Of a DNA stretch of 32,000 nt, positions 18,085-32,000 are shown piece after piece. Positions within the stretch are counted from its first letter, which is position 1, and each line of letters begins with the position of its first letter. The translations under genes were made by a program, and so were the position numbers. A model generated the notes under the pieces. That model saw nothing but the letters and a program-made list of their open reading frames with translations. It was not told the DNA's origin and did not search any database. Source of the stretch: Kiritimatiella glycovorans (lineage in GTDB: Bacteria > Verrucomicrobiota > Kiritimatiellia > Kiritimatiellales > Kiritimatiellaceae); contig NZ_CP010904.1 of the NCBI RefSeq assembly GCF_001017655.1, forward strand, positions 2,670,001-2,702,000, written 5' to 3'.

Positions 18085-18098
18085 CGCAAGGCGCGAAA

Positions 18099-18298: not shown

Positions 18299-19750
18299 AT
18301 GAGAAAACTGCTCAAACGTTACGGCCGGAGTGCGAGTTATCTGCTGCTCATAGATTATCTCCTGATCGTCGGCACCTTTGGGGTCGCCCTGCGGTTCCGG
18401 CATTACGCCTTCGGCATGAACATCATCGATCTCGCTCACGGCGAGATCGTCCCCGAGGCGGCGTTTGTCTTCTTCTACGCCTTCTTCGGGCTGGGCCTCT
18501 TCAGTGCGTTCAACCTTTACAAGCGCAAGACGTGGATCTCGCTGCGATGGCATCAGCTCGGGATCATCGAAAGCACCGTGGTGTTTATCCTCATCTACGT
18601 GCTCTTCAAATCCATATTTAAGAGCGCAATCTTTCTGGAGTCCCGTCTGGTAACCTTCAACTGGGGTGTGCTGCTGCTGCTGGCGCTCAGTGCGCACCGG
18701 CTGATCCTGTTTCCGCTCATTTTGCGCTACGCCTCGAAAGCCGGGCTGCAGCGGCGGGTCGTGGTCATCGGCGACGGCCCGCTCGCAAAGGATTTCGTCC
18801 GGAAATGGAACGCGGGGCGGTATTCGACCATTGAGGTCCTCGGCCAGCTTACGGGACGCGGGGAAGAGGAGCGGGCGTTAAAGGACATCCCCCGCCTGGG
18901 CGATGTGGCTGATTTGCGCGAACTGATCGATCTGCACAAGATCGAGGGGGCAGTAATCGCGGAACCCGGCCTTACGCATCAGCAGCTCATGGATCTGATC
19001 GAGGAATGCGTGGGGCTGTTCGGCTGGGTGGATGTCCACTCGGCGAAATCGGCGGTCTGGCATGAGAAACTGAATGCCGACCTGCTCTTCGACATCCCGT
19101 TCGTGCGCTTACGCAGCATCCCGGACAATCCGCTTTACTTCGGGTACAAGCGTATGTTTGACGTGGTCGCCTCGTCGCTCGGCCTGCTGATCCTTTCCCC
19201 GGTCATGATCGGCACGGCCATCGCGATCAAGGTGACCTCCCCCGGCCCGGTCTTCTATGTGCGCGAGCGCGTCGGCAGTGGCGGCAGGCCCTTCAAGTTC
19301 TACAAGTTCCGCTCCATGGCCGTGGGAGCGGATAAGGACGAACAGCGGGCGAATGATATCGCCCGGTATATCGCGAACGGCGAAGGTCAGCAGAGCAAGG
19401 TGGTCAATACGGCCTATGTGACCCCGGTGGGACGCTTCATCCGCAAGTGGGCGATCGACGAACTCCCCCAGCTTTTCAACGTAATCAGGGGCGACATGTC
19501 CCTTGTCGGTCCGCGCCCCGTCCCGCCGGATGAATTCAATTTAAATGAGGAGTGGCACAAACGTCGCTTCGACATCAAACCGGGGTGCACGGGATTGTGG
19601 AAGCTCTACGCCAGCCGCGAGCGCGATACCTCATTCAACCAGACCTGCCTGTACGACCTCTACTACTCGAGGAACATGAACCCGCTGATGGATCTCTACA
19701 TCATCTTCGGAACCGTTTTCGTGATTCTCACGGGGCAGGCGGACGGCTGA
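18299..19750 (+). CDS. Polyprenyl-phosphate sugar phosphotransferase, second copy (EPS-type with central nucleotide-binding-like domain)
   Basis: KRMFDVVASSLGLLILSPVMIGTAIAIKVTSPGPVFYVRERVG, FKFYKFRSM, DELPQLFNVIRGDMSLVGPRP and PGCTGLW. Confidence 0.88.
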   Translation: MRKLLKRYGRSASYLLLIDYLLIVGTFGVALRFRHYAFGMNIIDLAHGEIVPEAAFVFFYAFFGLGLFSAFNLYKRKTWISLRWHQLGIIESTVVFILIYVLFKSIFKSAIFLESRLVTFNWGVLLLLALSAHRLILFPLILRYASKAGLQRRVVVIGDGPLAKDFVRKWNAGRYSTIEVLGQLTGRGEEERALKDIPRLGDVADLRELIDLHKIEGAVIAEPGLTHQQLMDLIEECVGLFGWVDVHSAKSAVWHEKLNADLLFDIPFVRLRSIPDNPLYFGYKRMFDVVASSLGLLILSPVMIGTAIAIKVTSPGPVFYVRERVGSGGRPFKFYKFRSMAVGADKDEQRANDIARYIANGEGQQSKVVNTAYVTPVGRFIRKWAIDELPQLFNVIRGDMSLVGPRPVPPDEFNLNEEWHKRRFDIKPGCTGLWKLYASRERDTSFNQTCLYDLYYSRNMNPLMDLYIIFGTVFVILTGQADG

Positions 19751-19793: not shown

Positions 19794-20393
19794 TCAGCTG
19801 GAGACCCGGCACAAACGGCCGTTTTCGATCCGATATCGCATCCCGCTCTGCGGATTCACGATCTGCCCGTCTTCCTCCGTTAACCGCGTGCCGTCGTAGT
19901 CCACGTATCCCGCGGGAGATGCCGGATTCCCGGTAACCAGGCGATGGGGTTCGATATCTTTTGTGACGACACTCCCGGCGCCGATCATGCAGTAACTGCC
20001 GAGGACGATGCCGGGGAGGATCGTAGCGTTGGCGCCGATACTAACCCCTTCCTCCACACGGGTCCTTACAAGCCAGTCCGCTTCATCGCGGCGGGATCCT
20101 TCCTGCGAAGGCATCCTCTGACTCCGCGGAAACAGATCGTTGGTAAATACCACCCCCGGCCCGATAAAGACGGAATCGGCCACCTCCACACCCTTCCAGA
20201 CCATGACCCCGTTCTTGATCGTAACGCCATCGCCGATCTTCGCTCCCGATTCGATGAATGCGTGGTCGCCGATATTGCAACGGGGCCCTATGGTCGCGCC
20301 TTCCATGACGTGGGCAAACGCCCAGATGCAGCTTCCCTCTCCGATGTGTTCCGATTCACATAAGGCATGAGGATGGACATATACGTCACGCAT
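19794..20393 (-). CDS. Left-handed beta-helix (hexapeptide-repeat) N-acetyltransferase, FdtC/QdtC/WlbB-like
   Basis: MRDVYVHPHALCESEHIGEGSCIWAFAHVMEGATIGPRCNIGDHAFIESGAKIGDGVTIKNGVMVW shows hexapeptide periodicity. The start is re-set from 20507 to ATG 20393, giving an 8-nt overlap with the upstream stop at 20386. Confidence 0.85.
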   Translation of the reverse strand: MRDVYVHPHALCESEHIGEGSCIWAFAHVMEGATIGPRCNIGDHAFIESGAKIGDGVTIKNGVMVWKGVEVADSVFIGPGVVFTNDLFPRSQRMPSQEGSRRDEADWLVRTRVEEGVSIGANATILPGIVLGSYCMIGAGSVVTKDIEPHRLVTGNPASPAGYVDYDGTRLTEEDGQIVNPQSGMRYRIENGRLCRVSS

Positions 20394-20928
20394 GGCCGGC
20401 TCCCTTCGACGAGGATCCCCTGAGGTGATCCCACGCACGGGCCTGACGATCGAATTCGTCGCGTTCACGTATATAATCCGCCTCATCGTACTCCATGTTC
20501 GCGACAATCAGAAACTGGGAATCGGGCGCGAACTCTGTCAGCGTGCGCCAGATGTGCGGGAAGAGCAGCAGGGCATGGATAGATTCCCCGTCATTCGCGA
20601 CGACGCGCGAGGCCCTTTCCTCGGCAGATCCCGAATCCGTGGAGCGATCCCCGACCAGCCGGACCTTATCTTCCGCGCCTTTCCCGTCATCGAGGATCAC
20701 GGTACAGCCGCCGCGAAGGCAGACCAGGATTTCCTCGGTCTCAAAATGAGCATGGCCGCCCCGGTGGTCGCTTGCATCCATGCCCGAGGTCCAGAGCACC
20801 TTGCCGATCCGGAACGGGAGCGCGTTATCCGGCCCCGCCCCCGGCTGGAACTGAACCAGCGATGCGCCGCCGCGACTGCGACGACGCGGGAACGTGAGGA
20901 CGCGGTAGAGCGGCCGCGTCACTAGCAT
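20386..20928 (-). CDS. WxcM/FdtA-like cupin, dTDP-4-keto-6-deoxyhexose 3,4-ketoisomerase
   Basis: ALPFRIGKVLWTSGMDASDHRGGHAHFETEEILVCLRGGCTVILDDGKG, LLFPHIWRTLTEFAPDSQFLIVANMEYDEADYIRERDEF is the FdtA/QdtA domain pattern. FdtA and QdtA stereochemistry cannot be told apart by eye. Confidence 0.8.
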   Translation of the reverse strand: MLVTRPLYRVLTFPRRRSRGGASLVQFQPGAGPDNALPFRIGKVLWTSGMDASDHRGGHAHFETEEILVCLRGGCTVILDDGKGAEDKVRLVGDRSTDSGSAEERASRVVANDGESIHALLLFPHIWRTLTEFAPDSQFLIVANMEYDEADYIRERDEFDRQARAWDHLRGSSSKGAGHA

Positions 20929-21866
20929 TCCCCCTTGGCCTTGAGGTACTTCTTATACAGCTTCACATACTCGGGCATATATTCGCGCAGGGTGGTGGTC
21001 GGCTCCCAACCCAGCGCGCGGATCTTGCTGCAGTCCACCGAATAGCGCCGGTCCTGGCCGACGCGGTTTTCGACATAGACCAGCGAATCCTTGTCGTGGC
21101 CCATCTCATCGAGAACGATCTGTACGGCTTCCAGTACGGAGTGTTCTTCGTTCGAGGAAATGTTGTAGACCTCACCCAGCTCGCCCTTCTCCATGAGCAG
21201 CAGGATCGCCCTCGCGTGATCGCCCGCGTAGAGCCATTCGCGCCGGTAACTGCCGTCGCCGTGGATCGTCATCGGTTTCCCGCTGAGCAGGAACTCGATC
21301 GTCTTCGCCAGGAGTTTCTCGGGGTACTGCCCGAACCCGTAGTTGTTGCAGGTGCGGCAGACCATGATCGGCAGCCCGTAGGTATTGCGCCAGCCGAGGA
21401 TAAGCTGTTCCGCGGCGGCCTTCGTCGCGGAGTAGGGATTGGACGGATTCAGCGGGTCGACTTCGGAGAAGCATCCGTCAAAAATGGTGCCGTAGACCTC
21501 ATCGGTCGAGACGTGGATCAACTTCGGTCGGTCGGTCTCGTCCTTGGACCGGACCAGCTCGAGCAGATTGTAGACCCCGCGTACATTGCTGTGAAAAAAG
21601 TCTTCGTTCGCCATGATCGAGTTGTCGACATGCGATTCCGCAGCGAAATTGATGATGTAGTCAATGTTCACCGGCAGGTGCTTGATTTCGCTGATGTCGT
21701 CCTCGATGAACTCGTAATGATCGCGCGAGTCGAAGTCGAGATCATCACGCGCCGCATAGGTCCGCTTATCGAGATTGATCACGTAATAGCCGGCCTGCAG
21801 CGCCGCCTCTACAAAATACGAGCCGATAAAACCGAGCCCGCCGGTGACCAGAATCTTTTTTCTCAT
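20922..21866 (-). CDS. rfbB: dTDP-glucose 4,6-dehydratase
   Basis: MRKKILVTGGLGFIGSYFV, HVSTDEVYG and YSATKAAAEQL (SDR Y-xxx-K). The track start 21869 is GTG. ATG 21866 has an AAGGA Shine-Dalgarno about 7 nt upstream. Confidence 0.9.
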   Translation of the reverse strand: MRKKILVTGGLGFIGSYFVEAALQAGYYVINLDKRTYAARDDLDFDSRDHYEFIEDDISEIKHLPVNIDYIINFAAESHVDNSIMANEDFFHSNVRGVYNLLELVRSKDETDRPKLIHVSTDEVYGTIFDGCFSEVDPLNPSNPYSATKAAAEQLILGWRNTYGLPIMVCRTCNNYGFGQYPEKLLAKTIEFLLSGKPMTIHGDGSYRREWLYAGDHARAILLLMEKGELGEVYNISSNEEHSVLEAVQIVLDEMGHDKDSLVYVENRVGQDRRYSVDCSKIRALGWEPTTTLREYMPEYVKLYKKYLKAKGEC

Positions 21867-22150
21867 CACTTTTCCTTCGGTTGATTATGCATCATTTCTG
21901 CTGAAAAACCGCTCACACGCGGCTATGGAAGCTCAGGCCGCTGATCGGAAGCAACCACGAACCGCACGAAATACCCAAAAACAAACGATCCTTCTTCCCG
22001 CCTTCTTTTCCTTCTGCGGTGGTTCTGCCGGGCAGCAGAAAGCCTGTCCGCCGAAAGCGCAAAGTGCTGAAGGCGGACCGATCACGCCCTATCTCCGGCG
22101 GCGCGCTCGGATATCACGCCCTACCGGCTCGCGAAACCGGCGCATCCGCT

Positions 22151-23113
22151 TCAACTCTCCCTCACCTGTTCCCCGACCCACCGGTACGTCTTTTCCATGC
22201 CCTTTCGCAAGGGCTGCACCGGGCGCCAGCCGAGTTTCTGTTCGATGCGCGTGTTTTCCGAATTGCGGCCGCGGACACCGAGCGGACCGGGGACGTGTTT
22301 GAGTCTGATCGACTTGCCGGCAATCTCCGCCGCCATGAGCGCGAGGTCGTTGATCGAGATCATTTCATCCGAGCCGATATTGAGCGGCCCCATGACATCC
22401 GATTCCATGAGCCTGCGTACCCCTTCTATGCATTCATCGATATAGAGGAACGAACGGGTCTGTTCACCGTCGCCCCAGATTTCGACTTCGCCACCCTCTT
22501 CTGCTTCAGCGACCTTGCGGCACATCGCGGCGGGGGCCTTTTCGCGCCCGCCCGTCCACGTTCCCTCGGGTCCGAAGATGTTGTGAAAGCGGGCGATGTG
22601 GATCTCCAGGCCGAAATTGCGGTGATAGGCCGCATACATGCGCTCGGAGAACAGCTTTTCCCAGCCGTACTCGGAGTCCGGCCTCGCGGGATAGACATCC
22701 GACTCCTTCAATCCGGGGTTGGACGTCTCCATCTGGATATCCTCCGGATACACGCATGCGGAAGAGGAGTAAAAGATCTTCCCGACCTTCTTACGGACGG
22801 CCTCGTGGACCACGTTCAGATTGCAAAGTGCGGAGTTGTGCATGATTGTGGCGTCGTTCTCGCCCGAGAAGACGAAGCCTGCGCCGCCCATATCCGCCGC
22901 AAACTGGTAGATCTCGTCCATCCCCTCGTCGATAACCCGCGCCACGACCTCCGGATCGCGCAGATCGCCCTGCACGAAATCGTCGGCGGGCAGGTCGCAG
23001 AACTCATGCTGTTTGATGTCCACGCCGCGGACCCAATAACCCTCATCCTTGAGGCGCTTCACCATATGGCCGCCGATAAACCCGCCGGCGCCGCAGACTA
23101 AAGCTGTTTTCAT
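22151..23113 (-). CDS. GDP-mannose 3,5-epimerase homolog (extended SDR)
   Basis: Strong blockwise resemblance to plant GME as I recall it: FYSSSACVYPE, GTWTGGREKAPAAMCRK, WGDGEQTRSFLYIDECIEGVRRL, NIGSDEMISINDL and PGPLGVRGRNSENTRIEQKLGW. Confidence 0.8.
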   Translation of the reverse strand: MKTALVCGAGGFIGGHMVKRLKDEGYWVRGVDIKQHEFCDLPADDFVQGDLRDPEVVARVIDEGMDEIYQFAADMGGAGFVFSGENDATIMHNSALCNLNVVHEAVRKKVGKIFYSSSACVYPEDIQMETSNPGLKESDVYPARPDSEYGWEKLFSERMYAAYHRNFGLEIHIARFHNIFGPEGTWTGGREKAPAAMCRKVAEAEEGGEVEIWGDGEQTRSFLYIDECIEGVRRLMESDVMGPLNIGSDEMISINDLALMAAEIAGKSIRLKHVPGPLGVRGRNSENTRIEQKLGWRPVQPLRKGMEKTYRWVGEQVRES

Positions 23114-23203
23114 TTCGACTCTCCCGTACTCATATGCATTTCAAATAGTACTTCCAGTTTTCCGTTCAAATCCGCGAAGGACAAGAAAAAGGGGCCTACC
23201 GTA

Positions 23204-24097
23204 TCATTTGAGGGTCGCGCTCAGGGTATCGATCCAGCCCTTTTCCCGGGAAGACAGCTGATCATATTTTGACGCGGTGGGTCGAATCTCGCTAAGCCTG
23301 CCCGTAAATACGGGACCCGGCCGCATCCCCAGTTCGCTGAAAAGCCGTCCGGATTCACCGGGAGGATCGGCCAGCAGATCTTCATAGATGACCTTGACCG
23401 CCTCCGGGTGCAGAGCCGCGAATTCGTTGCAGCGATCCATCATGGTCCGATACCTCTTCGCGAACCGTATCACCGGGCTGCGCTTTCTGCTGCACAGAAG
23501 GTAGTACGAACTCAATACGGCGCGGGTGTCGCGGCGTCGGATCAGAACGACGCGCGTCTCATTAATATGGTGCTTGATGAACGGAAGCGACCAGACATGA
23601 GCGGGTGTTTTCTCCACCACGCGCTCGTCGCCCGTACATTCGAGCGCGGAAGCGAACACCGCGCGCGCAAACGCTCCGGGGGATTCGGCCAGCGCTTCGC
23701 GCCAGGCCGCAACCCAGGTGCTGATGCGTTTCGCGTCGCCTTCCCGCAACCTCACGCCTGCGGCGTCAGGCAGGGGATTTTTCGGCATGAGATCGTACTC
23801 ATCCGGAACCCGGCAGAAGCGCATCACGTTTCGCGCCAGCTCCTCCAGCCGATCCCGACGGCGCACGCGGTCGCGCAGGTGCCTCGCCCGCCCCGTCGCC
23901 CACGAAGCCGGGCCGGTCAGCAAACCGGCAGCGGCCGCTTCGCGGAAGCTGCGCGCCCACGGCGCCGAAGCAAAGTAGATATGGGAGAAGATCCCGGTCT
24001 CGCCGAGATAGCGCGTATCCTGCGCGAGACCGAGAATCTGGCCGAGGAGCGAGGTCCCCGAGCGCGGGGGACCGATCACAAAAACAGGTGCCTTCAT
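23204..24097 (-). CDS. Sulfotransferase (PAPS-dependent, P-loop type)
   Basis: The 5'-PSB loop is VFVIGPPRSGTSLLGQILG. The 3'-PB-like region is VVLIRRRDTRAVLSSYY. The start is re-set from 24253 to ATG 24097, because the N-terminal extension overlaps the upstream gene end at 24111. Confidence 0.8.
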   Translation of the reverse strand: MKAPVFVIGPPRSGTSLLGQILGLAQDTRYLGETGIFSHIYFASAPWARSFREAAAAGLLTGPASWATGRARHLRDRVRRRDRLEELARNVMRFCRVPDEYDLMPKNPLPDAAGVRLREGDAKRISTWVAAWREALAESPGAFARAVFASALECTGDERVVEKTPAHVWSLPFIKHHINETRVVLIRRRDTRAVLSSYYLLCSRKRSPVIRFAKRYRTMMDRCNEFAALHPEAVKVIYEDLLADPPGESGRLFSELGMRPGPVFTGRLSEIRPTASKYDQLSSREKGWIDTLSATLK

Positions 24098-24110
24098 GGA
24101 AAGGGGGAAA

Positions 24111-25148
24111 TCAATCCGGACGCTTTCCTGCGGCCAATCCGGCAAGCACATCCACCACCTCACCCGCCACGTCGGGTCCTTCATAGCTGAAATGCGCAGG
24201 AATTTCGCGTTTACGGATTTCGACCCGATCCACTTTCCCGGGCTCGTCCACAAACGTCAGCCGCCCCCGCTCGGCCAGGTGCTCATCCAGGTAAGGCTTG
24301 CGACCGGTGAAGATCGAATAAACAGGAACCCCGAGCAGTCCCGCTTCACGATTCATGGTTCCGCCGCCGCTGATGAATACGTCCGAATTCCAGATCAGCT
24401 GCAACCCGTCTACCGGCTTTTCAAGAAAATGGACGCCGTCGCCGAAACGGTCATGAATAAACCTGCGATCGCGTTCGATCCGGCTGACGATAAGCGGCCA
24501 GACATCTTCGTGATCCAGGGCATGCTCGATCACGCGCAACAGGATCTTTTCGCTGCGCGGGTCGTGGTAATTCGCATACATGGCGGAGGGGCGGATCGTG
24601 ACCAGTATTTTATTTTCGGGGACGCCGTTTTTCTCCCGGAAGGCGGGATCCGGCGTGAACTGCGGGAGATAGAGCTGTTCCTTGTATCCTCCGTACCGCA
24701 CCACTTTCTCCATCCGGAATCCGTTGGGAGCCAGCCGCTCCTCCGGGATGTATTCAGGGATCAGCATATATCTGGAGAACAGGTTGTAGATGCCGACTTC
24801 GGTATATTCGTAATCCATCATGGTCACGGCGGGGAGGCCCATCATGCGACAGGCCGTAACCATCGTCCGCGACCCGTGGCTGACGGAGAGATCAATCCCC
24901 TTCCCTTTCGCGTGCACCATGAGCTGAGCGGAGCGCTCGAAGAGATTGACGATCTTGCCGATCTTATGACGTCCTCCATGCCGCCCGATCGTCACGTGGG
25001 GGATGTCCCACATCTCGAGCAACGCCACGGTCTGGGCGAAGTCCCGCGCGGTAACCAGCGTCTCGATCCCGCGCCGCTCCAGTTCCCGGATGATCGGCCT
25101 GAACAGCGGAACGTGCGGCGTGTGATCGAGATCGATCCAGATCTTCAT
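24111..25148 (-). CDS. DUF354-family protein (GT-B/epimerase-like fold, function unknown)
   Basis: MKIWIDLDHTPHVPLFRPIIRELERRGIETLVTARD matches the DUF354 N-terminus. ATG 25148 forms an ATGA overlap with the upstream stop at 25145. Confidence 0.7.
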   Translation of the reverse strand: MKIWIDLDHTPHVPLFRPIIRELERRGIETLVTARDFAQTVALLEMWDIPHVTIGRHGGRHKIGKIVNLFERSAQLMVHAKGKGIDLSVSHGSRTMVTACRMMGLPAVTMMDYEYTEVGIYNLFSRYMLIPEYIPEERLAPNGFRMEKVVRYGGYKEQLYLPQFTPDPAFREKNGVPENKILVTIRPSAMYANYHDPRSEKILLRVIEHALDHEDVWPLIVSRIERDRRFIHDRFGDGVHFLEKPVDGLQLIWNSDVFISGGGTMNREAGLLGVPVYSIFTGRKPYLDEHLAERGRLTFVDEPGKVDRVEIRKREIPAHFSYEGPDVAGEVVDVLAGLAAGKRPD

Positions 25149-25876
25149 GCTTCGGGATCCTTTCGTACATGAAACATCCGGTAGTGACCCCACGAACGGT
25201 CGCGCAGTCTTTCAAGATTGAGCCGCGTCAGCTTCCAGCACAGCAGGTTTACACCGCGCAACAGTTTAGCCCCGGCGCCGCCTCGCGGGAGCGTGTCCAT
25301 GTAAAAAGCCTGCACGTCATACCCTTTTTCCTCAAGGTGTGCACCGATCACGTATTCCGCTTCAGGGTCCTGATAGCCGTACTGTTCGACCATATGAGGC
25401 TCACTGACCTCCGTGGCGCGCGATTCGCTGTAGGAGGGAACTACGATGTACACGTCTCCGCCCGGCACGCAAAGCTCGAGATGCCGATCCACAAGCCGAA
25501 GCATAATCTCGCGCTTGAAGTGTTCCGCAAGTCCGACACTGACAACCGCATCCCAGCGCTGTTCCGGGTCGAAGTCGAAGATGTCGGCTCTGATCTCCCG
25601 GCTTGCGGGGGCCATCCGGCGCGCCATGCTAAGCGCCTCTGCTGAACGGTCCAGGATGGTGCTCTCGTCGAAGTCCCTGCTCAACGCCCCGGAAAGACGA
25701 CCCGAACCCGCACCGATCTCCAGGCAGGACCCGCGCTTCCGGGCCGTGGAGCGAATGTAGTGCGCGATCACACCGTTTAGGACTACATTTCCCTTGAGCC
25801 CCAGTCGTATGCCGAGTCTCCGCGCGGCGTTCCCGTAATGATGGTCCCAGTTGGTCTCTTCGCGTTTTTCCGTCAT
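25145..25876 (-). CDS. Class I SAM-dependent methyltransferase
   Basis: Motif I is CLEIGAGSGRLSGAL. An acidic residue ends beta-2 (STILDRS). The start is re-set from 26053 to ATG 25876, giving an ATGA overlap with the upstream stop at 25873. Confidence 0.75.
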   Translation of the reverse strand: MTEKREETNWDHHYGNAARRLGIRLGLKGNVVLNGVIAHYIRSTARKRGSCLEIGAGSGRLSGALSRDFDESTILDRSAEALSMARRMAPASREIRADIFDFDPEQRWDAVVSVGLAEHFKREIMLRLVDRHLELCVPGGDVYIVVPSYSESRATEVSEPHMVEQYGYQDPEAEYVIGAHLEEKGYDVQAFYMDTLPRGGAGAKLLRGVNLLCWKLTRLNLERLRDRSWGHYRMFHVRKDPEA

Positions 25877-26919
25877 CGCACGCCCCCCGAATCCCGTCCC
25901 GGACCTCTCGCCCGACCTCTCCCCTTTTTCCACAACCGGCCGAGAAAAAATCGCATGACTGCCGGGTGAAAGCAATATCCGCTGCGCAGCAGTTCGAGCT
26001 TCATCCGCACCCTCATCCGATTCGGCTCCAGCGGATCGTCCGCAGCCGCACACTGACGCCCGAGAGCATCGATCGAAAATGGCTCCAGGGCATCGACCCG
26101 GTGCCGTCGCTGTCGTGTCTCGAAGACAGCCGTCTCCGCCCCGGGTCCGCCGCGAATCATGAGTCCGCGGGTCGTGGTTCGCGAGAAATTCTGATCGAAG
26201 AGAAAATTGCCGTGACTGAACACCGTGACGCGCCCGTTTTCAGCCGATACCGGCTGTACTACGTGGGGATGATGTCCCGCTATAAAATCTACACCGCTCC
26301 GGTGCAGCTGCCGTGAAAGATCTTTCTGTTCGCGGTCCGGCAGGTGACGATATTCCTTCCCCCAGTGGACACTCACGATCCGGTATTCATTCGGAGCCGC
26401 GACCGGGGCCTTTTTGACCTGCACCAGAAGATCTCCGGCTGCAGTCCGGTTCCCCGGCCCGCTCGAAACCCGATCGTGGACCAGTGAGGCTCCCCAGATG
26501 CGCACCGGCACGCCGCAAATTTCCGACACGACGGATTCGCCATCCACGCCCGCGACGAGGATGCCGCGTTCCCGAAGACGTTCGATCGTCCATTGCGCGG
26601 CGGCCGGACCGTGCTGCGCGAAGTGATTGTTCGCGACATTGGCCACGATCGGGACCTCGATCGGGCCGAAAAACTGAAGCGCCGAGAGCGGTGCGCGGTA
26701 ACACGAGTCCTCCGGCGAGGCGGCCCGCCACTGCTCGTCGGGCATCAGGCTGCATTCGAAATTGAGCAGCAGAAGATCGGAGGTGTTGATGATGTCAAGA
26801 ACCCCGGGCGCAATCAGTTTGTCGAAGCGACCATTATAGCGCGACGGGATACCGCGCCGGTAGTGGTGCGTGTTTTCACCCAGCATTACATCGCCCACGC
26901 TGCAGAGACTAAACGGCAT
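25873..26919 (-). CDS. CapA/PGA_cap-family metallophosphoesterase-like protein
   Basis: The N-terminus has VGDVMLGE. VSVHWGKEYRHLPDREQKDLSRQLHRSGVDFIAGHHPHVVQPV is typical of the CapA family. The track start 26928 is TTG; I use ATG 26919. Confidence 0.75.
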   Translation of the reverse strand: MPFSLCSVGDVMLGENTHHYRRGIPSRYNGRFDKLIAPGVLDIINTSDLLLLNFECSLMPDEQWRAASPEDSCYRAPLSALQFFGPIEVPIVANVANNHFAQHGPAAAQWTIERLRERGILVAGVDGESVVSEICGVPVRIWGASLVHDRVSSGPGNRTAAGDLLVQVKKAPVAAPNEYRIVSVHWGKEYRHLPDREQKDLSRQLHRSGVDFIAGHHPHVVQPVSAENGRVTVFSHGNFLFDQNFSRTTTRGLMIRGGPGAETAVFETRQRRHRVDALEPFSIDALGRQCAAADDPLEPNRMRVRMKLELLRSGYCFHPAVMRFFLGRLWKKGRGRARGPGRDSGGVR

Positions 26920-28198
26920 GGCTCTCAATCACCCTGAATTTATCGTCGCTACCGCCCGGTTCTTTAAAAGAAAGCATCTCGACTTCAAGGCCTGCGCACG
27001 CCTCCCGTATGCTATTCCGCAGTCGTTCGCTCGCCCGGGCTCCGGTGTCGGGGGTCATGCGTACATACACCGACAGTTTTCCGGATTTTTCCTGAACAAT
27101 ACGGTAGCGCGTCACTTCCGGGAAATCGGCGAGGACGGCATTCAGCAGCGAACCGTGCACGCGGCTTCCGTCCGGAAGGCGAATCAGATCCCGTGTGCGC
27201 CCCTTGAGGTTCACGATGCCGGGCCAGGGCAAGCCGCAGGGGCAGTCGTCCATGTCCCGCACTTCCGCCACATCGCCCACACGGTAACGGACGAGCGGAA
27301 AACTCCGGGTGTTGAGCGAGGTCAGCAGCAGTTCACTCTCCCCTTCCGCCGTGCGCTGCGACTCCACCCACGTGTTGAGCGGATCGTAATGATATCCGGC
27401 ATGTTCTCCGCACTCACACGAGACGAGGCCTCCGTCGTTCGCGCCGTACATGTCATAGACGGGCACCTTCAGCATCGATTCGATTTGGCGACGCATGGCG
27501 GGAAGAAGCTGTTCCGAGGTCGTAAACACGGCCCCTAACGAAGCCATCTGCTTCGACAGGCCGGGTTCCTGTTCGAGCAACGCACATAACGCGCCGGGAT
27601 AGGCGAAGATAAACCGGGCGCGCCGGAGCGCGCGGGAGGGCGGCAACGCACCCTCGCCAATCCGATGGGCCTGAACCAGGGTATTATGCTGCAGGAACCG
27701 ATACACGGACTGCCTGAAACTTCCCTCGCCCTGCAGCGAGCGCCCTGCCACCGTTATGTAGGGATCTCCGGGTTCATATCCCGCACAGCGATGCCAGCAG
27801 AAGAGCAGATACGCCCGGGCCCTGCAGGTGGTATCGGCATCGACGTAATACTCAAAAGGGCTGCCCGTGCTCCCGCCCGTGCGCCGGCGCGCCGGCGGCG
27901 GATAACCCGAAGGCGGCGCGTACAGCTCATCCCGGTGTTCACTCACGCGTGTCTTGTCCATGACCGGGAGAGAATACAGCGCCTCTTCCGGCTCCTCACG
28001 CAGCGTCGCCTCTTTAACGCCCCGGAGCAGCGATCCGTAAAAGGGGTTGTGCCTCTGCAGTGATACCAGCAGCTCGCCCAGGGCGCGTCTTTGCCGCAAC
28101 CGCCAGTCGCCCAATCCGTCCCCTGCGCAGAGCCGCCGGTAGCCCTCCAGCGAACGGGTCCGGCGGACAAGATCAATGATCCGGTATCGCCAGCTCAT
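26909..28198 (-). CDS. Adenylate-forming enzyme of the PaaK/CapK (phenylacetate-CoA ligase / F390 synthetase-like) family
   Basis: The P-loop-like TGGSTGSPFEYYVD corresponds to the SSGTTG motif. The size (429 aa) and the C-terminal GRTRDLIRLPDG..V are typical of this family. Confidence 0.75.
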   Translation of the reverse strand: MSWRYRIIDLVRRTRSLEGYRRLCAGDGLGDWRLRQRRALGELLVSLQRHNPFYGSLLRGVKEATLREEPEEALYSLPVMDKTRVSEHRDELYAPPSGYPPPARRRTGGSTGSPFEYYVDADTTCRARAYLLFCWHRCAGYEPGDPYITVAGRSLQGEGSFRQSVYRFLQHNTLVQAHRIGEGALPPSRALRRARFIFAYPGALCALLEQEPGLSKQMASLGAVFTTSEQLLPAMRRQIESMLKVPVYDMYGANDGGLVSCECGEHAGYHYDPLNTWVESQRTAEGESELLLTSLNTRSFPLVRYRVGDVAEVRDMDDCPCGLPWPGIVNLKGRTRDLIRLPDGSRVHGSLLNAVLADFPEVTRYRIVQEKSGKLSVYVRMTPDTGARASERLRNSIREACAGLEVEMLSFKEPGGSDDKFRVIESHAV

Positions 28199-29360
28199 CG
28201 ATCACTTCCTTCACGGTTTCGTATCGCGCGGCCCAGGTCTGGTCCTTCACCGCCGCCCGGCGAGCCGCTCTTCGCTTTTCATCGTCTTCGCCGATTGCGC
28301 GCCGCGCCTGCGTGACGAATTCCTGCGGCGATCGCGCGGTGTAGACCCAGTCCCCGTACCGCTTCTCGACGATCGGAATGGGACAGGCCACCACGGGAAG
28401 CCCGAGCGCCAGGTATTCGAGCGTCTTCAGGGGGAAGCAGTTGGTGATCCATTCCCCGGCGCGCCAGTTCAGCAACCCTACGTCGAATCCGCGGGCATAT
28501 GCAGGAAGCCTTTCATAGGCGACCGGACCCGGAAAATGAATATGCGGATGTGCTTCCAGCGCGGAGTAGTCCCCCAGAATTTTCCCGATCACAACGACCG
28601 AAAAACCGTCCTCGGCCAGCGCGAGGAAGGCGTCCTTATCGTTGGCGTCGGACAGCGATCCAAAGTAGCCGGCCACGGGCCGCCCGGAGCGGCGGATCTG
28701 CTCTACCGCCTCCGCGACCGGGCCTTCCGGCGAGAAACGATCGATGTTGACTCCGTGCGGCAGTAAATGGACCTTCCGTTGCTCCGCGAGTTCGAGCAGC
28801 CCCTGCCGGATGTGTTCTGAAGCTGCAAACCGGGCGTCCGCCGCCATGCACAACTGTTTCTCGGCATCGCGGAGCCGCGCGCGCAAGGATTCCGACTCCG
28901 TCCGGAATGCACTGAGCAGATCGTGGGCCTCGTAGACGCGGGCACGAAAGGGACGATCGAGCAGCGGGAGCGCAGTGACGCCCGGCGTGCACCACAACAC
29001 GGCGCGTTTCACCCTGATGCCGAACAGCAGCCGCAGCAGGCGGAACTGACCCCGAATCAGCATACGGTTGATCCGCGCGCCGCGTCGCGAGAACGCGGGG
29101 ATGTACAGGGGCACGCAGACCCAGAGCCGGGCACTCGGATGCCGGAGAAAGTTGAGGTGTGTGCGCAGCTTATTGCGAATCTTGCGCCACGCGGATACGG
29201 AGGAGGAGGACGACGACCCGCCGAAAGGAGAACGGAATGCGATCGGGTTGATCCACAGCACGCGCCAACCGTCATCGAGAAACTGCTGCATGAGCTGTTC
29301 CGTACTGGACACCGAGGGCCGGTACCAGTCGGGGCCGCAGCAGATGATCCATTTACGCAT
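28173..29360 (-). CDS. Glycosyltransferase, GT-B fold (GT4-like/TuaH-like)
   Basis: N-terminus MRKWIICCGPDWYRPSVSSTEQLMQQFLDDGWRVLWINP. C-terminal half PLKTLEYLALGLPVVACPIP. The family call is moderate. Confidence 0.65.
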   Translation of the reverse strand: MRKWIICCGPDWYRPSVSSTEQLMQQFLDDGWRVLWINPIAFRSPFGGSSSSSSVSAWRKIRNKLRTHLNFLRHPSARLWVCVPLYIPAFSRRGARINRMLIRGQFRLLRLLFGIRVKRAVLWCTPGVTALPLLDRPFRARVYEAHDLLSAFRTESESLRARLRDAEKQLCMAADARFAASEHIRQGLLELAEQRKVHLLPHGVNIDRFSPEGPVAEAVEQIRRSGRPVAGYFGSLSDANDKDAFLALAEDGFSVVVIGKILGDYSALEAHPHIHFPGPVAYERLPAYARGFDVGLLNWRAGEWITNCFPLKTLEYLALGLPVVACPIPIVEKRYGDWVYTARSPQEFVTQARRAIGEDDEKRRAARRAAVKDQTWAARYETVKEVIDELAIPDH

Positions 29361-30138
29361 GACTCAGTTCCTTCAGCGTATGGAACCGGCGTCCGGATTC
29401 ACGCAGGCGTTCGAGAAAGGCGACGAGTTCATCCATATCCGAACACACTGTGAAGCGGTGGTGGGTCAGAATACCGACCCGGTCCATGCCGGAGGGGAGA
29501 CGCCGCCATTCGTCGTACAGACGCGTCGCGCTCTTCTGTTCGCCATGGTCTTCATCGATCTGCCGCGCCGTATGATTGAGCACTACGGGGTATTCGCGGA
29601 ACCGGTACCCCGGCACATCGGCGCCGAAATAGACCACGTTGCGCCCCGCCAGGTGCTTTCTGCGCAACAGCCGCCCCAGGCGGTTATAGATCCGGCGCTT
29701 TCGGGTAAAGCGAATCCCGGTGCTGATCACGCGGTACCCCGCATCCTCCAGCGCATGCAGCGTATCGGCGTTGTAACCGCCAAACGGAAAACTGAATGCC
29801 CGGAACCATCCGTCGCCGAAATGGCGATTCATGAGATCACACCCCCGGCGGATATCCTCAGCCTGTTCGCGCCGGGGACGCCCGACGCCGAATTCCCCCG
29901 GCGGCCTGCTGCAGTGCTGCTTGTGGGCCAGCCCGTGCTGGATCAGCTCGAGCTGACGGGGATACGCCTCCATCCTGTCTCGAAGCCAGCGGACGACTTC
30001 TTCGGAAACATTGGCCGGTTCGACGGCGTGGGTAATCGGAAACCCCTTTTCCAACAGCGCATCCGTCAAATAAACCAGCGTATCGTCCAGCGATCCGCGC
30101 ACATCGTCATTGCGAATGAATAGATTCTTTGCGCTCAT
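29353..30138 (-). CDS. Polysaccharide deacetylase-like (NodB/CE4-like) protein
   Basis: IRNDDV (motif 1 Asp-Asp) and QHGLAHK (His-x3-His-like motif 2). There is an 8-nt overlap downstream and an ATGA overlap upstream. Confidence 0.6.
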   Translation of the reverse strand: MSAKNLFIRNDDVRGSLDDTLVYLTDALLEKGFPITHAVEPANVSEEVVRWLRDRMEAYPRQLELIQHGLAHKQHCSRPPGEFGVGRPRREQAEDIRRGCDLMNRHFGDGWFRAFSFPFGGYNADTLHALEDAGYRVISTGIRFTRKRRIYNRLGRLLRRKHLAGRNVVYFGADVPGYRFREYPVVLNHTARQIDEDHGEQKSATRLYDEWRRLPSGMDRVGILTHHRFTVCSDMDELVAFLERLRESGRRFHTLKELSHA

Positions 30139-30803
30139 GCGGTACTCTCGGCAGTGCTCATCGGATAACCGAAATCAAAGTCGCGTTGATAGATCCCGTT
30201 TACGATCGCCCTGGATTCGGAGTCGTAATATTCGTCCGCGTGCCCGTGGTCGGATTTTTGCGTGCGTATACTCAGGTCCAGCCCCAGATCCCTTGCGGCA
30301 TCTTTCAGTTCCGTTTCAATTCGATACCACTTTTTGAGCCGTATGCGCGGCCCCGCAATCCGCTTTTTCAAGCGGGGATGAAGCATGAAGTGCTGGGGAT
30401 AGAAATGCGGCTCTTCCCGGTAGATCGCGGGAAGCATGCGCACAAACTCAATAAAAGTCGTCTGAAGCAATCGCTCACGGATTTGCTCGAAATCATCCTG
30501 CTCGCTCAAACCCAGAAAAGGGAAGGCAAGAACCTGGCACGTCTGCCACCCCGTATCCGGCGTTCTCTGCGGCGGACTGCGGCGAAACTTGTCGGCGAAA
30601 CAGGAAACCACTCGATCATACGGATTGCGCACAAACATGTAATGTTCGCGCCGGTGACCGCGCAGCGCGTCAAAAAGCAGGGCGCGGGCGAACTGCACGT
30701 TGCTCAACTCCTGAAGTCCCGCCTGCTTTGTGAGCGTGGTGTAAAGCACCTTGCAGCTTGTGGAGAGATAATAGTTTCTCTCAGGATGAATAAAGCGCGG
30801 CAT
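30135..30803 (-). CDS. Sulfotransferase family 2-like protein
   Basis: MFVRNPYDRVVSCFADKF is the characteristic RNPxxRxxS motif. The start is re-set from 30929 to ATG 30803, which shares 1 nt with the upstream TGA (TGATG). Confidence 0.7.
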   Translation of the reverse strand: MPRFIHPERNYYLSTSCKVLYTTLTKQAGLQELSNVQFARALLFDALRGHRREHYMFVRNPYDRVVSCFADKFRRSPPQRTPDTGWQTCQVLAFPFLGLSEQDDFEQIRERLLQTTFIEFVRMLPAIYREEPHFYPQHFMLHPRLKKRIAGPRIRLKKWYRIETELKDAARDLGLDLSIRTQKSDHGHADEYYDSESRAIVNGIYQRDFDFGYPMSTAESTA

Positions 30804-31957
30804 CAGTCCTCCTGCACTTCCTGCGACGAGGCGGATTCGAATATCTTCCGATAGCGTTTTTCCTGCGCGGACCAGCTGTAGCGTGCTTGGAACCCGGGGG
30901 TGATGTTCTCCGCAGGCGCGTCCTTCCATATCCGTTTGAGGGCCCCGCGCATGGCGTCTCCGGTGATCGAGTCCAGACAGATCCCTACGTGCTGGTCTTC
31001 GACCACCTGGTGCAAGCCCGGAAAATTATTGGTGATCGCCGGAAGGCCGCACAGAAAGTAATCATAGATCTTGTTCGGTGCGCAGTAATACTGGTTCAGA
31101 TTGTCGTTTCGGTAAAAGGCCAGCCCGGCGTCGTATCCGGAAAGGCATTCATACATCTCGGCGTGGGAAACCGGCGGCAGAATGCGCACATGATCGATAC
31201 CGTGTGCCGCAATTCTCTCGTGAAGCATGCGCTGATAATCCTCCGGCCCGAACCCTATGAAGTCGCAGCGGGCCTCGGCGGGATCCACCTCGGCAAAGGC
31301 GTCGATCACTTCCTCGCAGCAGCGTTCGGGCTGCAGCGCTCCGATATAGACGATATCGAGCGGAGCGGTGGTTTCACGACTCCTTTCAGGAACGGGCCGC
31401 GAGGGACGCGGCAGGTTTTCGATCAACACGTGCTGCGCACGGCTCCGGTAATGCGTACGGCAGAATTCGAGCCGGTTGCGCTCCGCATGCAGGATCACAT
31501 CCGCCGCGCGAAAAACCACGGCATGAACCGGACGCCACATCAGCTTTTTCAGCGGCCGCATGCCCATGTGCATGAACAATTCGTTGCAGTCAAAGATGTA
31601 TCGAGTCGCGCGAAGCCGTCGTCTTGCCAGCGCTCCGCTCAGTGCCCCGTAAAGTTCTTCGCATACAATAGCGTCGGGCTCGAGCTGTACGAGTTCCTCC
31701 GCTGCGCGAAGGTTCCAGCGCAGGTGGTTCAGGTAGTTGCGAACCTTGTTCGGGTGACGGCGCAGGGGTCGGTCGAGGATCTTGAAGTCGTACGTTGAAT
31801 CATCCGCTTCCTCGTCATCGGTGCGCCCATGCAGGACCGTCACGTCGTGGCCGGCCTGGCGCAGCGTGCCGATCTGCTTGAGCATCCTGCCCTTGTAGCG
31901 CAGCATGCCGACAAAAACGAAGACCACGTTTATCCGTCTGCCCATGAAATACTCCAT
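30803..31957 (-). CDS. Glycosyltransferase family 4 (group 1)
   Basis: RINVVFVFVGMLRYKGRMLKQIGTLRQAGHDVTVLHG is the N-terminal Rossmann half. The C-terminal half shows YCAPNKIYDYFLCGLPAITNNFPGL. An alternative start is ATG 31945. Confidence 0.75.
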   Translation of the reverse strand: MEYFMGRRINVVFVFVGMLRYKGRMLKQIGTLRQAGHDVTVLHGRTDDEEADDSTYDFKILDRPLRRHPNKVRNYLNHLRWNLRAAEELVQLEPDAIVCEELYGALSGALARRRLRATRYIFDCNELFMHMGMRPLKKLMWRPVHAVVFRAADVILHAERNRLEFCRTHYRSRAQHVLIENLPRPSRPVPERSRETTAPLDIVYIGALQPERCCEEVIDAFAEVDPAEARCDFIGFGPEDYQRMLHERIAAHGIDHVRILPPVSHAEMYECLSGYDAGLAFYRNDNLNQYYCAPNKIYDYFLCGLPAITNNFPGLHQVVEDQHVGICLDSITGDAMRGALKRIWKDAPAENITPGFQARYSWSAQEKRYRKIFESASSQEVQED

Positions 31958-32000
31958 TCGAATGATTCATCTTCCGCCGCGTCTTCGATGACGCGCGTGA

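Follow-up and report, generated by a model that had tools for sequence, protein, structure and literature searches.

Sulfotransferases, a GDP-mannose 3,5-epimerase and a sulfate-activation module in a Kiritimatiella glycovorans gene island point to a sulfated surface polysaccharide

Among the closest described systems is a putative sulfated glycosaminoglycan-like EPS cluster in Pontiella sulfatireligans F21, a member of the same class (Kiritimatiellae) as Kiritimatiella glycovorans, for which a sulfated polymer was demonstrated chemically (PMC7356697). Like the K. glycovorans locus, the F21 cluster contains GT2/GT4 glycosyltransferases, a PF13469 sulfotransferase, a methyltransferase, a sugar aminotransferase and a GDP-mannose-modifying SDR (PMC7356697). 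In contrast, a sample of 200 other genomes from the class yielded no member of the subfamily to which the K. glycovorans sulfotransferase ST2 belongs. The Synechan (xss) cluster of Synechocystis PCC 6803 is reportedly a Wzx/Wzy-type cluster with embedded sulfotransferase genes. It makes a sulfated bacterial exopolysaccharide, and sulfotransferases are prominent in its description (PMC8205485). The K. glycovorans island differs from it in phylum and in sugar set. The island also differs in containing a GDP-mannose 3,5-epimerase (below, GME) and an adjacent PAPS synthase/CysQ/permease module in a genome in which assimilatory sulfate-reduction genes were not found, and in having no OPX/PCP (Wza/Wzc) match inside it. 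Sinorhizobium meliloti enzymes of the LpsS/NodH type, of PF13469/PF00685 type, carry out the PAPS-dependent sulfation of surface glycoconjugates that is also predicted for K. glycovorans, and one distant homolog of the sulfotransferase ST3 is annotated 'LPS sulfotransferase NodH'. However, identity is very low (about 25-37% over partial length), and the K. glycovorans sulfotransferases are several and are embedded in a Wzx/Wzy locus. In animal heparan sulfate NDST the deacetylase and sulfotransferase are fused, and in K. glycovorans the CE4 and ST2 genes are ATGA-coupled. The sequence relation to NDST and 2-O-sulfotransferase is undetectable past the superfamily level, the NDST1 deacetylase domain does not appear among the 50 best fold matches to the CE4 protein, and the animal enzymes are Golgi-lumenal whereas the K. 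glycovorans proteins are predicted to be cytoplasmic.

The window analysed here is a 32,000-nucleotide stretch of the K. glycovorans L21-Fru-AB chromosome (NZ_CP010904.1, positions 2,670,001 to 2,702,000). The ORF listing, re-translated from the start codons of an earlier note made from the sequence alone, gave the same block of ten minus-strand genes (31957 down to 22151) that the note had described, with the same junctions: overlaps of 1, 4, 8, 26, 11, 4 and 4 nt, followed by a 13-nt gap and then a 90-bp gap (Table 1). Domain searches likewise agreed with its calls of two glycosyltransferases, a DUF354 protein, two sulfotransferases and a CE4-like deacetylase. We take the DUF354 protein to belong to a GT-B-like transferase family. 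Three block genes had gone unnamed, those for the PaaK/CapK-like ligase, the PGA_cap protein and the methyltransferase. In a crude scan, transmembrane segments were absent from nine of the ten products, GT4b having two hydrophobic windows, and none of the ten had a hydrophobic N-terminus. The array does not end at 22151, since the RmlB, FdtA and FdtC genes continue on the same strand to 19794, and it also extends upstream of 31957. The block is the middle of a mostly co-directional run of about 32 kb, which in turn is part of a polysaccharide island exceeding 70 kb.

Table 1. Positions within the window, strand and basis of identification of the features discussed
Feature	Position	Strand	Basis
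GT4 glycosyltransferase GT4a (first block gene in the window)	30803-31957	-	Pfam Glyco_trans_1_4, Glyco_trans_4_4, Glycos_transf_1
ST2, Sulfotransfer_2-family sulfotransferase, 222 aa	30135-30803	-	PF03567, E about 1e-6 to 2e-6
CE4-like polysaccharide deacetylase	29353-30138	-	PF01522 (Polysacc_deac_1), 27.4 bits, E 3e-6
GT4 glycosyltransferase GT4b, TuaH-like	28173-29360	-	Pfam GT4 domains; NCBIfam TuaH 69 bits, below cut-off
PaaK/CapK-like adenylate-forming ligase	26909-28198	-	NCBIfam AMP-dependent ligase and PaaK models, all below cut-off
PGA_cap (CapA-like metallophosphoesterase-fold) protein	25873-26919	-	PF09587, E 1.6e-37
Class I SAM-dependent methyltransferase	25145-25876	-	Methyltransf_23/25/12/11
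DUF354 protein	24111-25148	-	PF04007, E 3.8e-35
ST3, Sulfotransfer_3-family (TPST/Stf-like) sulfotransferase, 297 aa	23204-24097	-	PF13469, E 3e-22
Intergenic gap, 90 bp, 44% GC, GGGAGAG ribosome-binding site ahead of epimerase start	23114-23203	.	Sequence
GDP-mannose 3,5-epimerase (GM35E/GME), extended SDR, 320 aa	22151-23113	-	phmmer vs PDB
RmlB-like 4,6-dehydratase	20922-21869	-	Pfam GDP_Man_Dehyd/Epimerase
FdtA-like 3,4-ketoisomerase	20386-20928	-	Pfam FdtA
FdtC-like hexapeptide acetyltransferase	19794-20393	-	Pfam Hexapep
Convergent set: DegT aminotransferase, two Bac_transf initiating phosphoglycosyl transferases, WecG/TagA-family GT26	14721-19750	+	Pfam
Wzy_C (O-antigen ligase/polymerase-like) membrane protein with TPR repeats	3521-5542	-	Pfam
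Class I mannose-6-phosphate isomerase ManA	1118-2134	-	TIGR00218, 130 bits vs cut-off 116; PMI_typeI_cat

The best PDB match of the epimerase is the Arabidopsis GME AtGM35E (2C59/2C54), with which it aligns over its full length (phmmer vs 2c59: E 3.9e-99, 335 bits, residues 6-318); the next-best family is GDP-fucose synthase at 93 bits, and no other SDR scores higher. The motifs SSAC, YGWEK, GGREKAP and GVRGRNS are all kept, as are the residues that define GME (PMC8787198): the protein shares with AtGM35E and with MfGM35E of Methylacidiphilum fumariolicum the GxxGxxG motif, the catalytic Ser-Tyr-Lys triad, the Cys that acts as acid, the Lys that acts as base, and the Arg that acidifies the Cys (PMC6678494, PMC8787198). 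As judged from its sequence, the product is a true GDP-mannose 3,5-epimerase and not a UDP-sugar epimerase or decarboxylase, in agreement with the first assignment. MfGM35E comes from the same phylum, Verrucomicrobiota, and likewise from a glycan locus (PMC6678494). The K. glycovorans GME differs from characterised GMEs in having no link to an ascorbate or antibiotic pathway, and it stands among sulfotransferases, a setting not reported for any characterised GME in the literature consulted. The idea that bacterial GME homologs are uncommon does not fit the phylum, in which 44 of 401 sampled genomes have one, nor the previous characterisation of a bacterial GME (PMC6678494). Its gene has the 90-bp gap on its upstream side (44% GC, vs 60% for the operon) and a gap of 281 bp on its downstream side, and may therefore form a transcription unit of its own. 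The promoter proposed in the upstream gap was not recovered, as a sigma-70 consensus scan gave no minus-strand match, which is weak evidence since promoters of this phylum are uncharacterised.

Both sulfotransferase-like proteins carry conserved residues at the PAPS-binding motif positions. For ST2, whose family has 326 representatives, K18, R59, S67, K72 and H133 are invariant among 60 members, 58 of which match PF03567. The AF2 model of ST2 (pLDDT 95) gave no Foldseek match with a significant E-value, and other structural matches are middling; the best 22 are all sulfotransferases, led by heparan sulfate 2-O-sulfotransferase (Z 7.2), and the NDST1 sulfotransferase domain gives Z 5.7-5.9. ST2 has no transmembrane segment and is predicted to be cytoplasmic. 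In ST3 little or no variation is seen in the 5'-PSB loop G-P-P-R-S-G-T-S, in the E162-K163-T-P..H167 motif or in the 3'-PB R188...S196, and the PSB region is alignable to human TPST1/2. That these proteins are inactive, or use acceptors other than carbohydrates (lipids, peptides or small molecules), is the least probable of the alternatives weighed here and highly improbable: the 5'-PSB loop of ST2 is atypical and the only PDB sequence matches of ST3 are protein-tyrosine sulfotransferases, weak ones (E 0.05), but the catalytic residues are invariant family-wide, start and stop codons overlap with those of glycosyltransferase and deacetylase genes, and synteny with glycan genes is kept on the contigs L103, L104 (a metagenome contig) and L072.

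A source of PAPS is encoded about 27 kb past the window end, where a bifunctional sulfate adenylyltransferase/APS kinase (960 bits vs cut-off 669) adjoins CysQ (288 bits vs cut-off 229) and a DASS-family sulfate permease. No member of the PAPS_reduct family (PAPS reductase/CysD) and no NIR_SIR sulfite reductase was found in the whole genome (one contig, 99.97% complete), so that a use of this PAPS in sulfate assimilation is excluded, as far as gene content tells. GDP-mannose could be supplied through ManA, as had been proposed, together with four phosphohexomutases and a ManC-like mannose-1-P guanylyltransferase.

Elsewhere in the phylum, the 20 further GME loci that were checked lack a sulfotransferase within about 10 kb. 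Contig L103 (37% GC) keeps ST2, a heparinase-II/III-like gene, GT4, CE4, GT4b (52% identical), the ligase (45%) and PGA_cap (38%) together, alongside Wzx, Wzy_C and another sulfotransferase, and has no GME in its visible 12.5 kb; on L104 the GT4a homolog adjoins the ST2 homolog. Contig L072 (30% GC) carries Wzx, GME (71% identical), WecG, a sulfotransferase, GT4, a Sulfotransfer_2 protein and GT2, and its remaining proteins are merely 20-30% identical to those of the island, so GME and two sulfotransferases recur there in a non-orthologous cluster. Since the ST2 subfamily was not found in the sampled class genomes, GME and ST2 differ in evolutionary history, and the two may have been juxtaposed through mosaicism of the island. 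It is possible, if rather unlikely, that the epimerase and the sulfation block (from GT4a to PGA_cap, plus the heparinase-like gene upstream) are distinct modules that happen to be neighbours. Sulfate would then go onto uronic acids or amino sugars, for instance by N-sulfation following CE4 de-N-acetylation, which would give a glycosaminoglycan-like polymer, and the L-sugar would be unsulfated or part of another glycan. The block on L103, the relatives' GME loci, the coupling of ST2 and CE4, the HexNAc and HexNAcA pathways of the island and the exopolymers of cultured Pontiella, mostly (75-80%) N-sulfated (PMC7356697), all favour such an arrangement. On the other hand, L103 stops right behind PGA_cap, so its lack of GME covers the visible part only, GME lies amid two sulfotransferases on L072, and it is in the same co-directional array, 90 bp past ST3. 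In the deacetylase, N10-D11-D12, H68/H72, P118 and H226-H227-R228 are invariant in 25 homologs, and the AF2 model (pLDDT 93.5) matches a CE4-type fold, with CE4 esterases and de-N-acetylases as best Foldseek matches (E 5e-8, probability 1.00); acetylxylan esterases are among these, and CE4 enzymes also remove O-acetyl groups.

Outside the window the island encodes two more sulfotransferases, three GT4s, AsnB, Wzx, an 11-TM Wzy-like protein, WecB and TviB-like and TviC-like proteins. Because the wider array provides for dTDP-3-acetamido-3,6-dideoxyhexose, UDP-GlcNAcA (TviB-like) and UDP-ManNAc (WecB), and for an AsnB-type amidotransferase, its gene content speaks for an amino-sugar/uronic-acid heteropolymer and not for an algal-type galactan. 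The earlier note had predicted an algal-like sulfated L-galactose-type polymer; taken as a sulfated L-galactan of the kind of agar or porphyran, this is in our view very unlikely. GME does supply L-galactose to red-algal galactans (PMC8787198) and sulfotransferases adjoin it here, but nothing ties any of them to L-galactose, and more than 10 glycosyltransferases and at least four nucleotide-sugar pathways besides that of GME argue for a complex heteropolymer. What stands of that prediction is the set of GME, sulfotransferases and PAPS synthesis genes; nothing places sulfate on the L-sugar or marks the product as an exopolysaccharide.

Wzy_C proteins with TPR repeats also occur in EPS loci. That the product is an LPS O-antigen instead of a released exopolysaccharide or capsule is a serious possibility, to which we give somewhat less than even weight: Wzx, Wzy-like and O-antigen-ligase-like proteins are found in the annotated stretches, the four Wza/Wzc matches of the genome lie outside the island (at 0.22, 0.72, 1.58 and 2.27 Mb), and a role in LPS synthesis has been proposed for MfGM35E (PMC6678494). 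Against it, an extracellular polymer is visible in this strain (PMC5148204), and Wza/Wzc from other sites could serve the island. The island may encode more than one glycan, given its pair of initiating transferases and its two proteins of the Wzy_C type.

Our preferred reading, which we hold to be moderately probable, is that the island encodes one sulfated polysaccharide of the Wzx/Wzy type, built as lipid-linked repeat units, with a GME-derived L-sugar donor; that all the genes serve one polymer is something we infer. GME would convert GDP-D-mannose, formed via ManA, phosphomannomutase and ManC, to GDP-L-galactose and/or GDP-L-gulose, and one glycosyltransferase would take the GDP-L-sugar as donor alongside those of the other island pathways (possibly including UDP-GalNAcA). 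Four cytoplasmic sulfotransferases, two in the block and two just past the window, each with a presumed acceptor, would sulfate the growing unit at the cytoplasmic face with PAPS from the island module, CysQ clearing the PAP by-product, and the CE4 deacetylase, translationally coupled to ST2, probably frees an amine or hydroxyl for sulfation or other decoration. Wzx would then flip the completed unit and the Wzy-like protein polymerise it.

Because GME, sulfotransferases and a dedicated sulfate-activation module occur in one long array, it is very probable that K. glycovorans, an anaerobe of a salt mat, produces a surface polysaccharide that is sulfated and that may carry L-galactose or L-gulose. 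The locus is not a new kind of system, and the prediction of a sulfated polysaccharide is sound and testable.

The ten minus-strand genes that the earlier note had reported were reproduced in an ORF listing and by re-translation from the start codons chosen there, in a genome of Kiritimatiella glycovorans that is a single contig of 2,949,723 bp, of which the window takes up bases 2,670,001-2,702,000, has 63.31% GC and is 99.97% complete (CP010904 is the chromosome of strain L21-Fru-AB; PMC5148204). The junctions are also as described, with overlaps of 1, 4, 8, 26, 11, 4 and 4 nt followed by a 13-nt gap and then by a 90-bp gap ahead of the epimerase gene. This last gap is AT-rich as had been stated (44% GC vs 60% for the operon), and a GGGAGAG ribosome-binding site stands at its end, before the epimerase. 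The candidate promoter proposed within it had no minus-strand match in a scan with the sigma-70 consensus, a result of little weight in either direction. Pfam and NCBIfam agreed with the names that seven of the ten genes had received, the other three having been left unnamed. A crude scan found no hydrophobic segment in nine of the ten products and flagged two windows in GT4b, the TuaH-like glycosyltransferase.

Features of the polysaccharide island and of related loci (window positions unless a locus or the genome is named; L052 and L053 are genome stretches past the window end, L033 to L049 GME loci of the phylum, L072 a contig labelled Candidatus Woesearchaeota; names of the ten genes from Pfam and NCBIfam)
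Feature	Position	Strand	Remarks
Gene 1, GT4 (GT4a)	30803-31957	-	first of ten, from 31957 downwards
Gene 2, Sulfotransfer_2 (ST2)	30135-30803	-	invariant Lys segment at 30750-30803, residues 1-25
Gene 3, Polysacc_deac_1 (CE4)	29353-30138	-	
Gene 4, GT4, TuaH-like (GT4b)	28173-29360	-	
Gene 5, PaaK/CapK-like adenylate-forming ligase		-	
Gene 6, PGA_cap		-	
Gene 7, SAM methyltransferase		-	
Gene 8, DUF354		-	
Gene 9, Sulfotransfer_3 (ST3)	23204-24097	-	
Gene 10, extended SDR (GME)	22151-23113	-	320 aa
RmlB-like dehydratase, FdtA-like ketoisomerase, FdtC-like acetyltransferase	downstream of epimerase	same	
DegT aminotransferase, two Bac_transf initiating enzymes, WecG-family GT	downstream of epimerase	facing	
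Heparinase II/III-like, two-domain oxidoreductase, third sulfotransferase, unassigned 448-aa protein	upstream of 31957, set 1		sulfotransferase on plus strand
Two GT4s, 11-TM protein, third GT4, AsnB-type amidotransferase, Wzx	upstream of 31957, set 2		11-TM protein likely Wzy
Fourth sulfotransferase, TviC-like epimerase, WecB, TviB-type UDP-GlcNAc 6-dehydrogenase	upstream of 31957, set 3		sets 1-3 lead away from the window
Heparinase II/III-like protein	L052:2-1858		overlaps window 31930-32000; in array of GT4a
Fused ADH_zinc_N/GFO_IDH_MocA oxidoreductase	L052:1855-3996		
TviB-like dehydrogenase, fused ATP sulfurylase/APS kinase, DASS/CitMHS permease with TrkA_C domains, CysQ	genome 2,727,926-2,734,074 (L053:5925-12074)		
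GT26 gene of the window	17293-18084		4 kb from GME
GT26 genes near GME elsewhere	L033:12619-14346; L035:7377-8444; L037:8512-9336; L049:10970-11860; L072:6922-7617		
Small SAM methyltransferases near GME	L037:9302-9976; L038:8149-8820		directly downstream; one GT4 away
Sulfotransferase-family genes outside the island	genome 1,393,863-1,400,006; 54,573; 2,088,768; 2,179,806		six in the 6-kb block; about nine in all
811-aa protein	7651-10086	+	
HEPN/nucleotidyltransferase pair	12297-13035	-	toxin-antitoxin-like
DUF4143 AAA ATPase	5936-7168		

The best PDB matches of the epimerase are four Arabidopsis GME entries (E 3.9e-99, 335 bits, residues 6-318), with a second plant GME also among them, compared with 93 bits for GDP-fucose synthase, 92 for UDP-glucose 4-epimerase and 91 for UXS among other SDRs, and it reached no NCBIfam equivalog for any other SDR. 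GM35E enzymes are set apart from their relatives by a Ser/Tyr/Lys triad, a catalytic Cys, a catalytic Lys and a Cys-acidifying Arg (PMC8787198). Behind the N-terminal glycine motif GAGGFIGG (residues 8-15), the SSAC and YGWEK segments of the K. glycovorans protein align to SSAC and YGLEK of AtGME, so that the [ST]...YxxxK triad (AtGME S143, Y174, K178) is present. The Cys in SSACVYPE aligns to the catalytic acid C145, the Lys in GGREKAP to the catalytic base K217 (His in GDP-fucose synthase), and GVRGRNSEN to GVRGRNSDN, which keeps the Cys-acidifying Arg306 (Lys in GMER). The GME placement rests on the PDB comparison, and there the clustering with UDP-sugar enzymes that would have spoken against it was not seen; a tree of phylum homologs only, without a named characterised GME, puts the epimerase in a well-supported subclade with order-level relatives, near the enzyme of contig L072. 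Its predicted products from GDP-D-mannose are GDP-L-galactose or GDP-L-gulose, and L-galactose or L-gulose is likely to be incorporated into the glycan. As to the precursor, ManA in the window is over its cut-off, and the genome has four phosphohexomutase-family genes and a mannose-1-phosphate guanylyltransferase-type gene, whose 272 bits come from the transferase portion of the model. The earlier description of bacterial GME homologs as uncommon does not hold in this phylum, where 44 of 401 sampled genomes have one (E <= 1e-60) and a verrucomicrobial GME has already been characterised (PMC6678494).

Both sulfotransferase-like proteins of the block keep their PAPS-binding residues in the alignments, and the loss of these residues, which the earlier note had named as a refutation, was not seen. 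ST3 scores 80 bits against PF13469 (cut-off 27) and has the 5'-PSB loop GPPRSGTS at residues 9-16 (motif PxxRSGT[ST]). In an alignment with eight database homologs and two other sulfotransferases of the island, this loop and the 3'-phosphate-binding R188 and S196 vary little or not at all, and E162, K163 and H167 of the E-K-T-P...H motif, which we take to be the catalytic residues by analogy with TPST, are nearly invariant. Its sole PDB sequence matches are human tyrosylprotein sulfotransferases, weak and over the PAPS loop. ST2 matches PF03567 over part of its length only and matches no PDB sequence. An exhaustive HMMER search gave a family of 326 representatives of about 220 residues, and in 60 members, 58 of which match PF03567, the residues K18, R59, S67, K72 and H133 are invariant. 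The segment from R59 to S67 reads RNPYDRVVS, and the K18 loop, S-C-K-V-L-Y-T-T, is atypical. The canonical 5'-PSB loop is P-K-x-G-x-T; the ST2 subfamily has no such loop, and its invariant Lys is part of T-x-x-K-V-[ML]-Y-[ST]-T-L, possibly a variant form of the 5'-phosphosulfate-binding loop. The AlphaFold (AF2) model of ST2 has a pLDDT of 95 and no Foldseek match in the PDB at E <= 0.001. When the model was aligned to 48,161 chains, places 1 to 22 were all taken by sulfotransferases with middling Z scores of 7.2-4.7 over residues 7-216, led by heparan sulfate 2-O-sulfotransferase with Z 7.2 over 165 aligned residues, and the NDST1 sulfotransferase domain scored Z 5.7-5.9. The fold is visible only by such exhaustive structural alignment, not by Foldseek or a sequence search of the PDB. 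From their sequences, ST2 and ST3 are predicted to be PAPS-dependent sulfotransferases acting on a glycan, which is supported indirectly by the island's PAPS synthase and CysQ and by the lack of an assimilatory use of PAPS. Sulfotransferase-family genes number about 13 in the genome. About nine lie outside the island, a complement that is large for a 2.95-Mb genome known for 56 sulfatases, and six of these form a single block at 1.39-1.40 Mb.

A search of the genome for PAPS synthesis genes gave one APS-kinase match, in a 575-aa bifunctional sulfate adenylyltransferase/adenylylsulfate kinase (960 bits vs a cut-off of 669). This PAPS synthase is adjoined by a DASS/CitMHS-type anion permease and a CysQ 3'(2'),5'-bisphosphate nucleotidase (288 bits vs 229), and the module lies about 27-32 kb beyond the window end. 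No member of the PAPS_reduct family (CysH/CysD) was found in the K. glycovorans genome by a search that was positive in 14 of 14 control genomes, nor was a NIR_SIR sulfite reductase by one that was positive in 11 of the 14. Since neither was found in a genome that is 99.97% complete, PAPS is left without an assimilatory outlet; sulfation is the only evident use of PAPS, and sulfate appears to be activated for sulfation only. The growth medium of the organism contains sulfide and cysteine, which fits the missing assimilation (PMC5148204). The prediction of a sulfated glycan is stronger than the earlier note could know because a dedicated PAPS module is present and no assimilation genes were found, and both this prediction and the gene identifications are well supported.

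The CE4 deacetylase, the start of whose gene overlaps the ST2 stop (ATGA), has N10-D11-D12 and H72 invariant and H68 nearly so among 25 homologs and exceeds the PF01522 cut-off. It thus keeps the Asp-Asp of CE4 motif 1 and the His-x3-His metal ligands of motif 2. In Foldseek its model (pLDDT 93.5) finds de-N-acetylases and acetylxylan esterases of family CE4 (probability 1.00, E 5e-8), in line with the (beta/alpha) barrel fold of the family; the NDST1 deacetylase domain was absent from the top 50 fold matches. At E <= 1e-10, no member of the ST2 subfamily turned up in 200 other sampled genomes of the class. A metagenome scan recovered contig L103 (L103:1-11941; JGI contig Ga0256842_1002681; 37% GC), which is probably related to those that carry the nearest homologs of ST2 and CE4 and corresponds in synteny to window 25873-31957 together with the heparinase-II/III-like gene. 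Its genes stand in nearly the window order (Wzy_C, Wzx, Sulfotransfer_3, ST2, heparinase-II/III-like, GT4, CE4, GT4b, ligase, PGA_cap), with identities to the window proteins of 59% for ST2, 52% for CE4, 52% for GT4b, 45% for the ligase and 38% for PGA_cap, and of about 31% between the two heparinase II/III-like proteins (tblastn). None of the L103 proteins Wzy, Wzx, Sulfotransfer_3 and GT4 matches anything in the island by tblastn (E <= 1e-5), and no GME is seen in the visible part of the contig, which ends just after PGA_cap. The unit formed by ST2, CE4, GT, ligase and CapA is a conserved, mobile one.

The pairing of epimerase and sulfotransferases was seen in two cases, too few for a rule that goes beyond adjacency. 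Against such a rule, no sulfotransferase was found within up to 10 kb on each side of GME homologs in 20 loci of the phylum by tblastn with the window proteins and by two home-built HMMs; the HMMs were built from small alignments, so that distant types may have escaped them. The epimerase genes there have GT4, WecG-family, Wzy_C and methyltransferase genes as neighbours. The lack of the ST2 subfamily in the sampled genomes of the class and of a GME in the visible part of L103 also counts against it. In its favour, the second case is L072 (contig CAZDCI010000007.1, labelled Candidatus Woesearchaeota, about 30% GC), where a compact cluster at 4411-11391 has in a row Wzx, GME, a WecG-family GT, Sulfotransfer_1/3, GT4, Sulfotransfer_2 and GT2. 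The GME encoded there shares 71% identity with the enzyme of K. glycovorans, a 63% GC genome, while the other L072 proteins are only 20-30% identical to the island's. This suggests that the epimerase gene was transferred between domains, or that the contig was mis-binned. With identities that low, the combination has been assembled in a non-orthologous cluster. A pairing that is more than adjacency is plausible but unproven. A WecG/TagA-family (GT26) gene lies within 10 kb of GME in 5 of 21 other loci, and directly adjacent to it in L049 and L072. The GT26 enzyme is a candidate L-galactosyl/L-gulosyl transferase, though GT26 genes are common in glycan loci. A small SAM methyltransferase gene is found near GME in two relatives.

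The earlier note had predicted an algal-like sulfated L-galactose-type exopolysaccharide. The prediction of a sulfated glycan stands, while the placing of sulfate on the L-sugar, the likeness to algal galactans and the exopolysaccharide nature are unsupported. A galactan of the algal type would have mostly galactose in its backbone and sulfate on L-galactose. The island has more than ten GTs and several pathways for amino sugars and uronic acids, which speaks against a simple galactan; its genes agree better with a sulfated amino-sugar/uronic-acid heteropolymer. Such a heteropolymer, read for K. glycovorans from its genes, would resemble the exopolymers of the related genus Pontiella, which were measured as sulfated, mostly N-sulfated (PMC7356697). 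A visible extracellular polymer has been reported for K. glycovorans; the main text of that species description was found to mention no sulfotransferase or epimerase (PMC5148204), and no polymer composition for the strain was found in the main texts of PMC5148204, PMC7356697 and PMC6388578.

The sulfotransferase genes of the island are embedded among GT, Wzx and Wzy-type genes. Synechan, a sulfated bacterial exopolysaccharide (PMC8205485), is reportedly made by a Wzx/Wzy cluster with embedded sulfotransferases, and the island is like a synechan-type cluster in this respect. No OPX/PCP (Wza/Wzc) export pair of its own was found in the island, and all four Poly_export and Wzz matches of the genome lie outside 2.65-2.74 Mb; the polymer could therefore be an EPS or an O-antigen. 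The K. glycovorans locus joins the already known bacterial Wzx/Wzy clusters with embedded sulfotransferases. The 811-aa protein matches no Pfam family and contains about seven hydrophobic segments; its gene is the first of a plus-strand set that includes GT2 and GT4 genes. The HEPN pair and the DUF4143 ATPase interrupt the glycan genes, and are consistent with a mosaic, horizontally remodelled island.

The heparinase II/III-like protein has no hydrophobic N-terminus, and its gene and that of the fused oxidoreductase lie directly upstream of GT4a. The island and L103 share a block of heparinase-II/III-like, GT4, Sulfotransfer_2, CE4, TuaH-like GT, CapK-like ligase and CapA-like genes. In principle, this block could be a bacterial cytoplasmic counterpart of heparan-sulfate-type tailoring, acting on a lipid-linked HexNAc/HexNAcA repeat with a GME-derived L-galactose or L-gulose branch, an explanation that we regard as improbable. 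The steps would be de-N-acetylation and N-sulfation, to which the lyase-fold protein might add a C5 epimerisation. If true, it would add a new class of prokaryotic glycosaminoglycan-like polymer, from a known degrader of sulfated glycans.

The epimerase and the sulfotransferases are small soluble proteins suited to expression, and if active they would be added enzymes for L-sugar nucleotide synthesis and in vitro glycan sulfation. The type strain is in culture, so that sulfate content, N- versus O-sulfation and the L-sugar are directly measurable. Sulfated polysaccharides are well known in animals, algae and cyanobacteria; to our knowledge, defined loci for their biosynthesis are few in other bacteria, and K. 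glycovorans has so far been treated only as a consumer of sulfated glycans, because of its 56 sulfatases. Because the genome has about 13 sulfotransferase genes and a PAPS pathway without an assimilatory outlet, the locus predicts that K. glycovorans is also a producer of a sulfated glycan.
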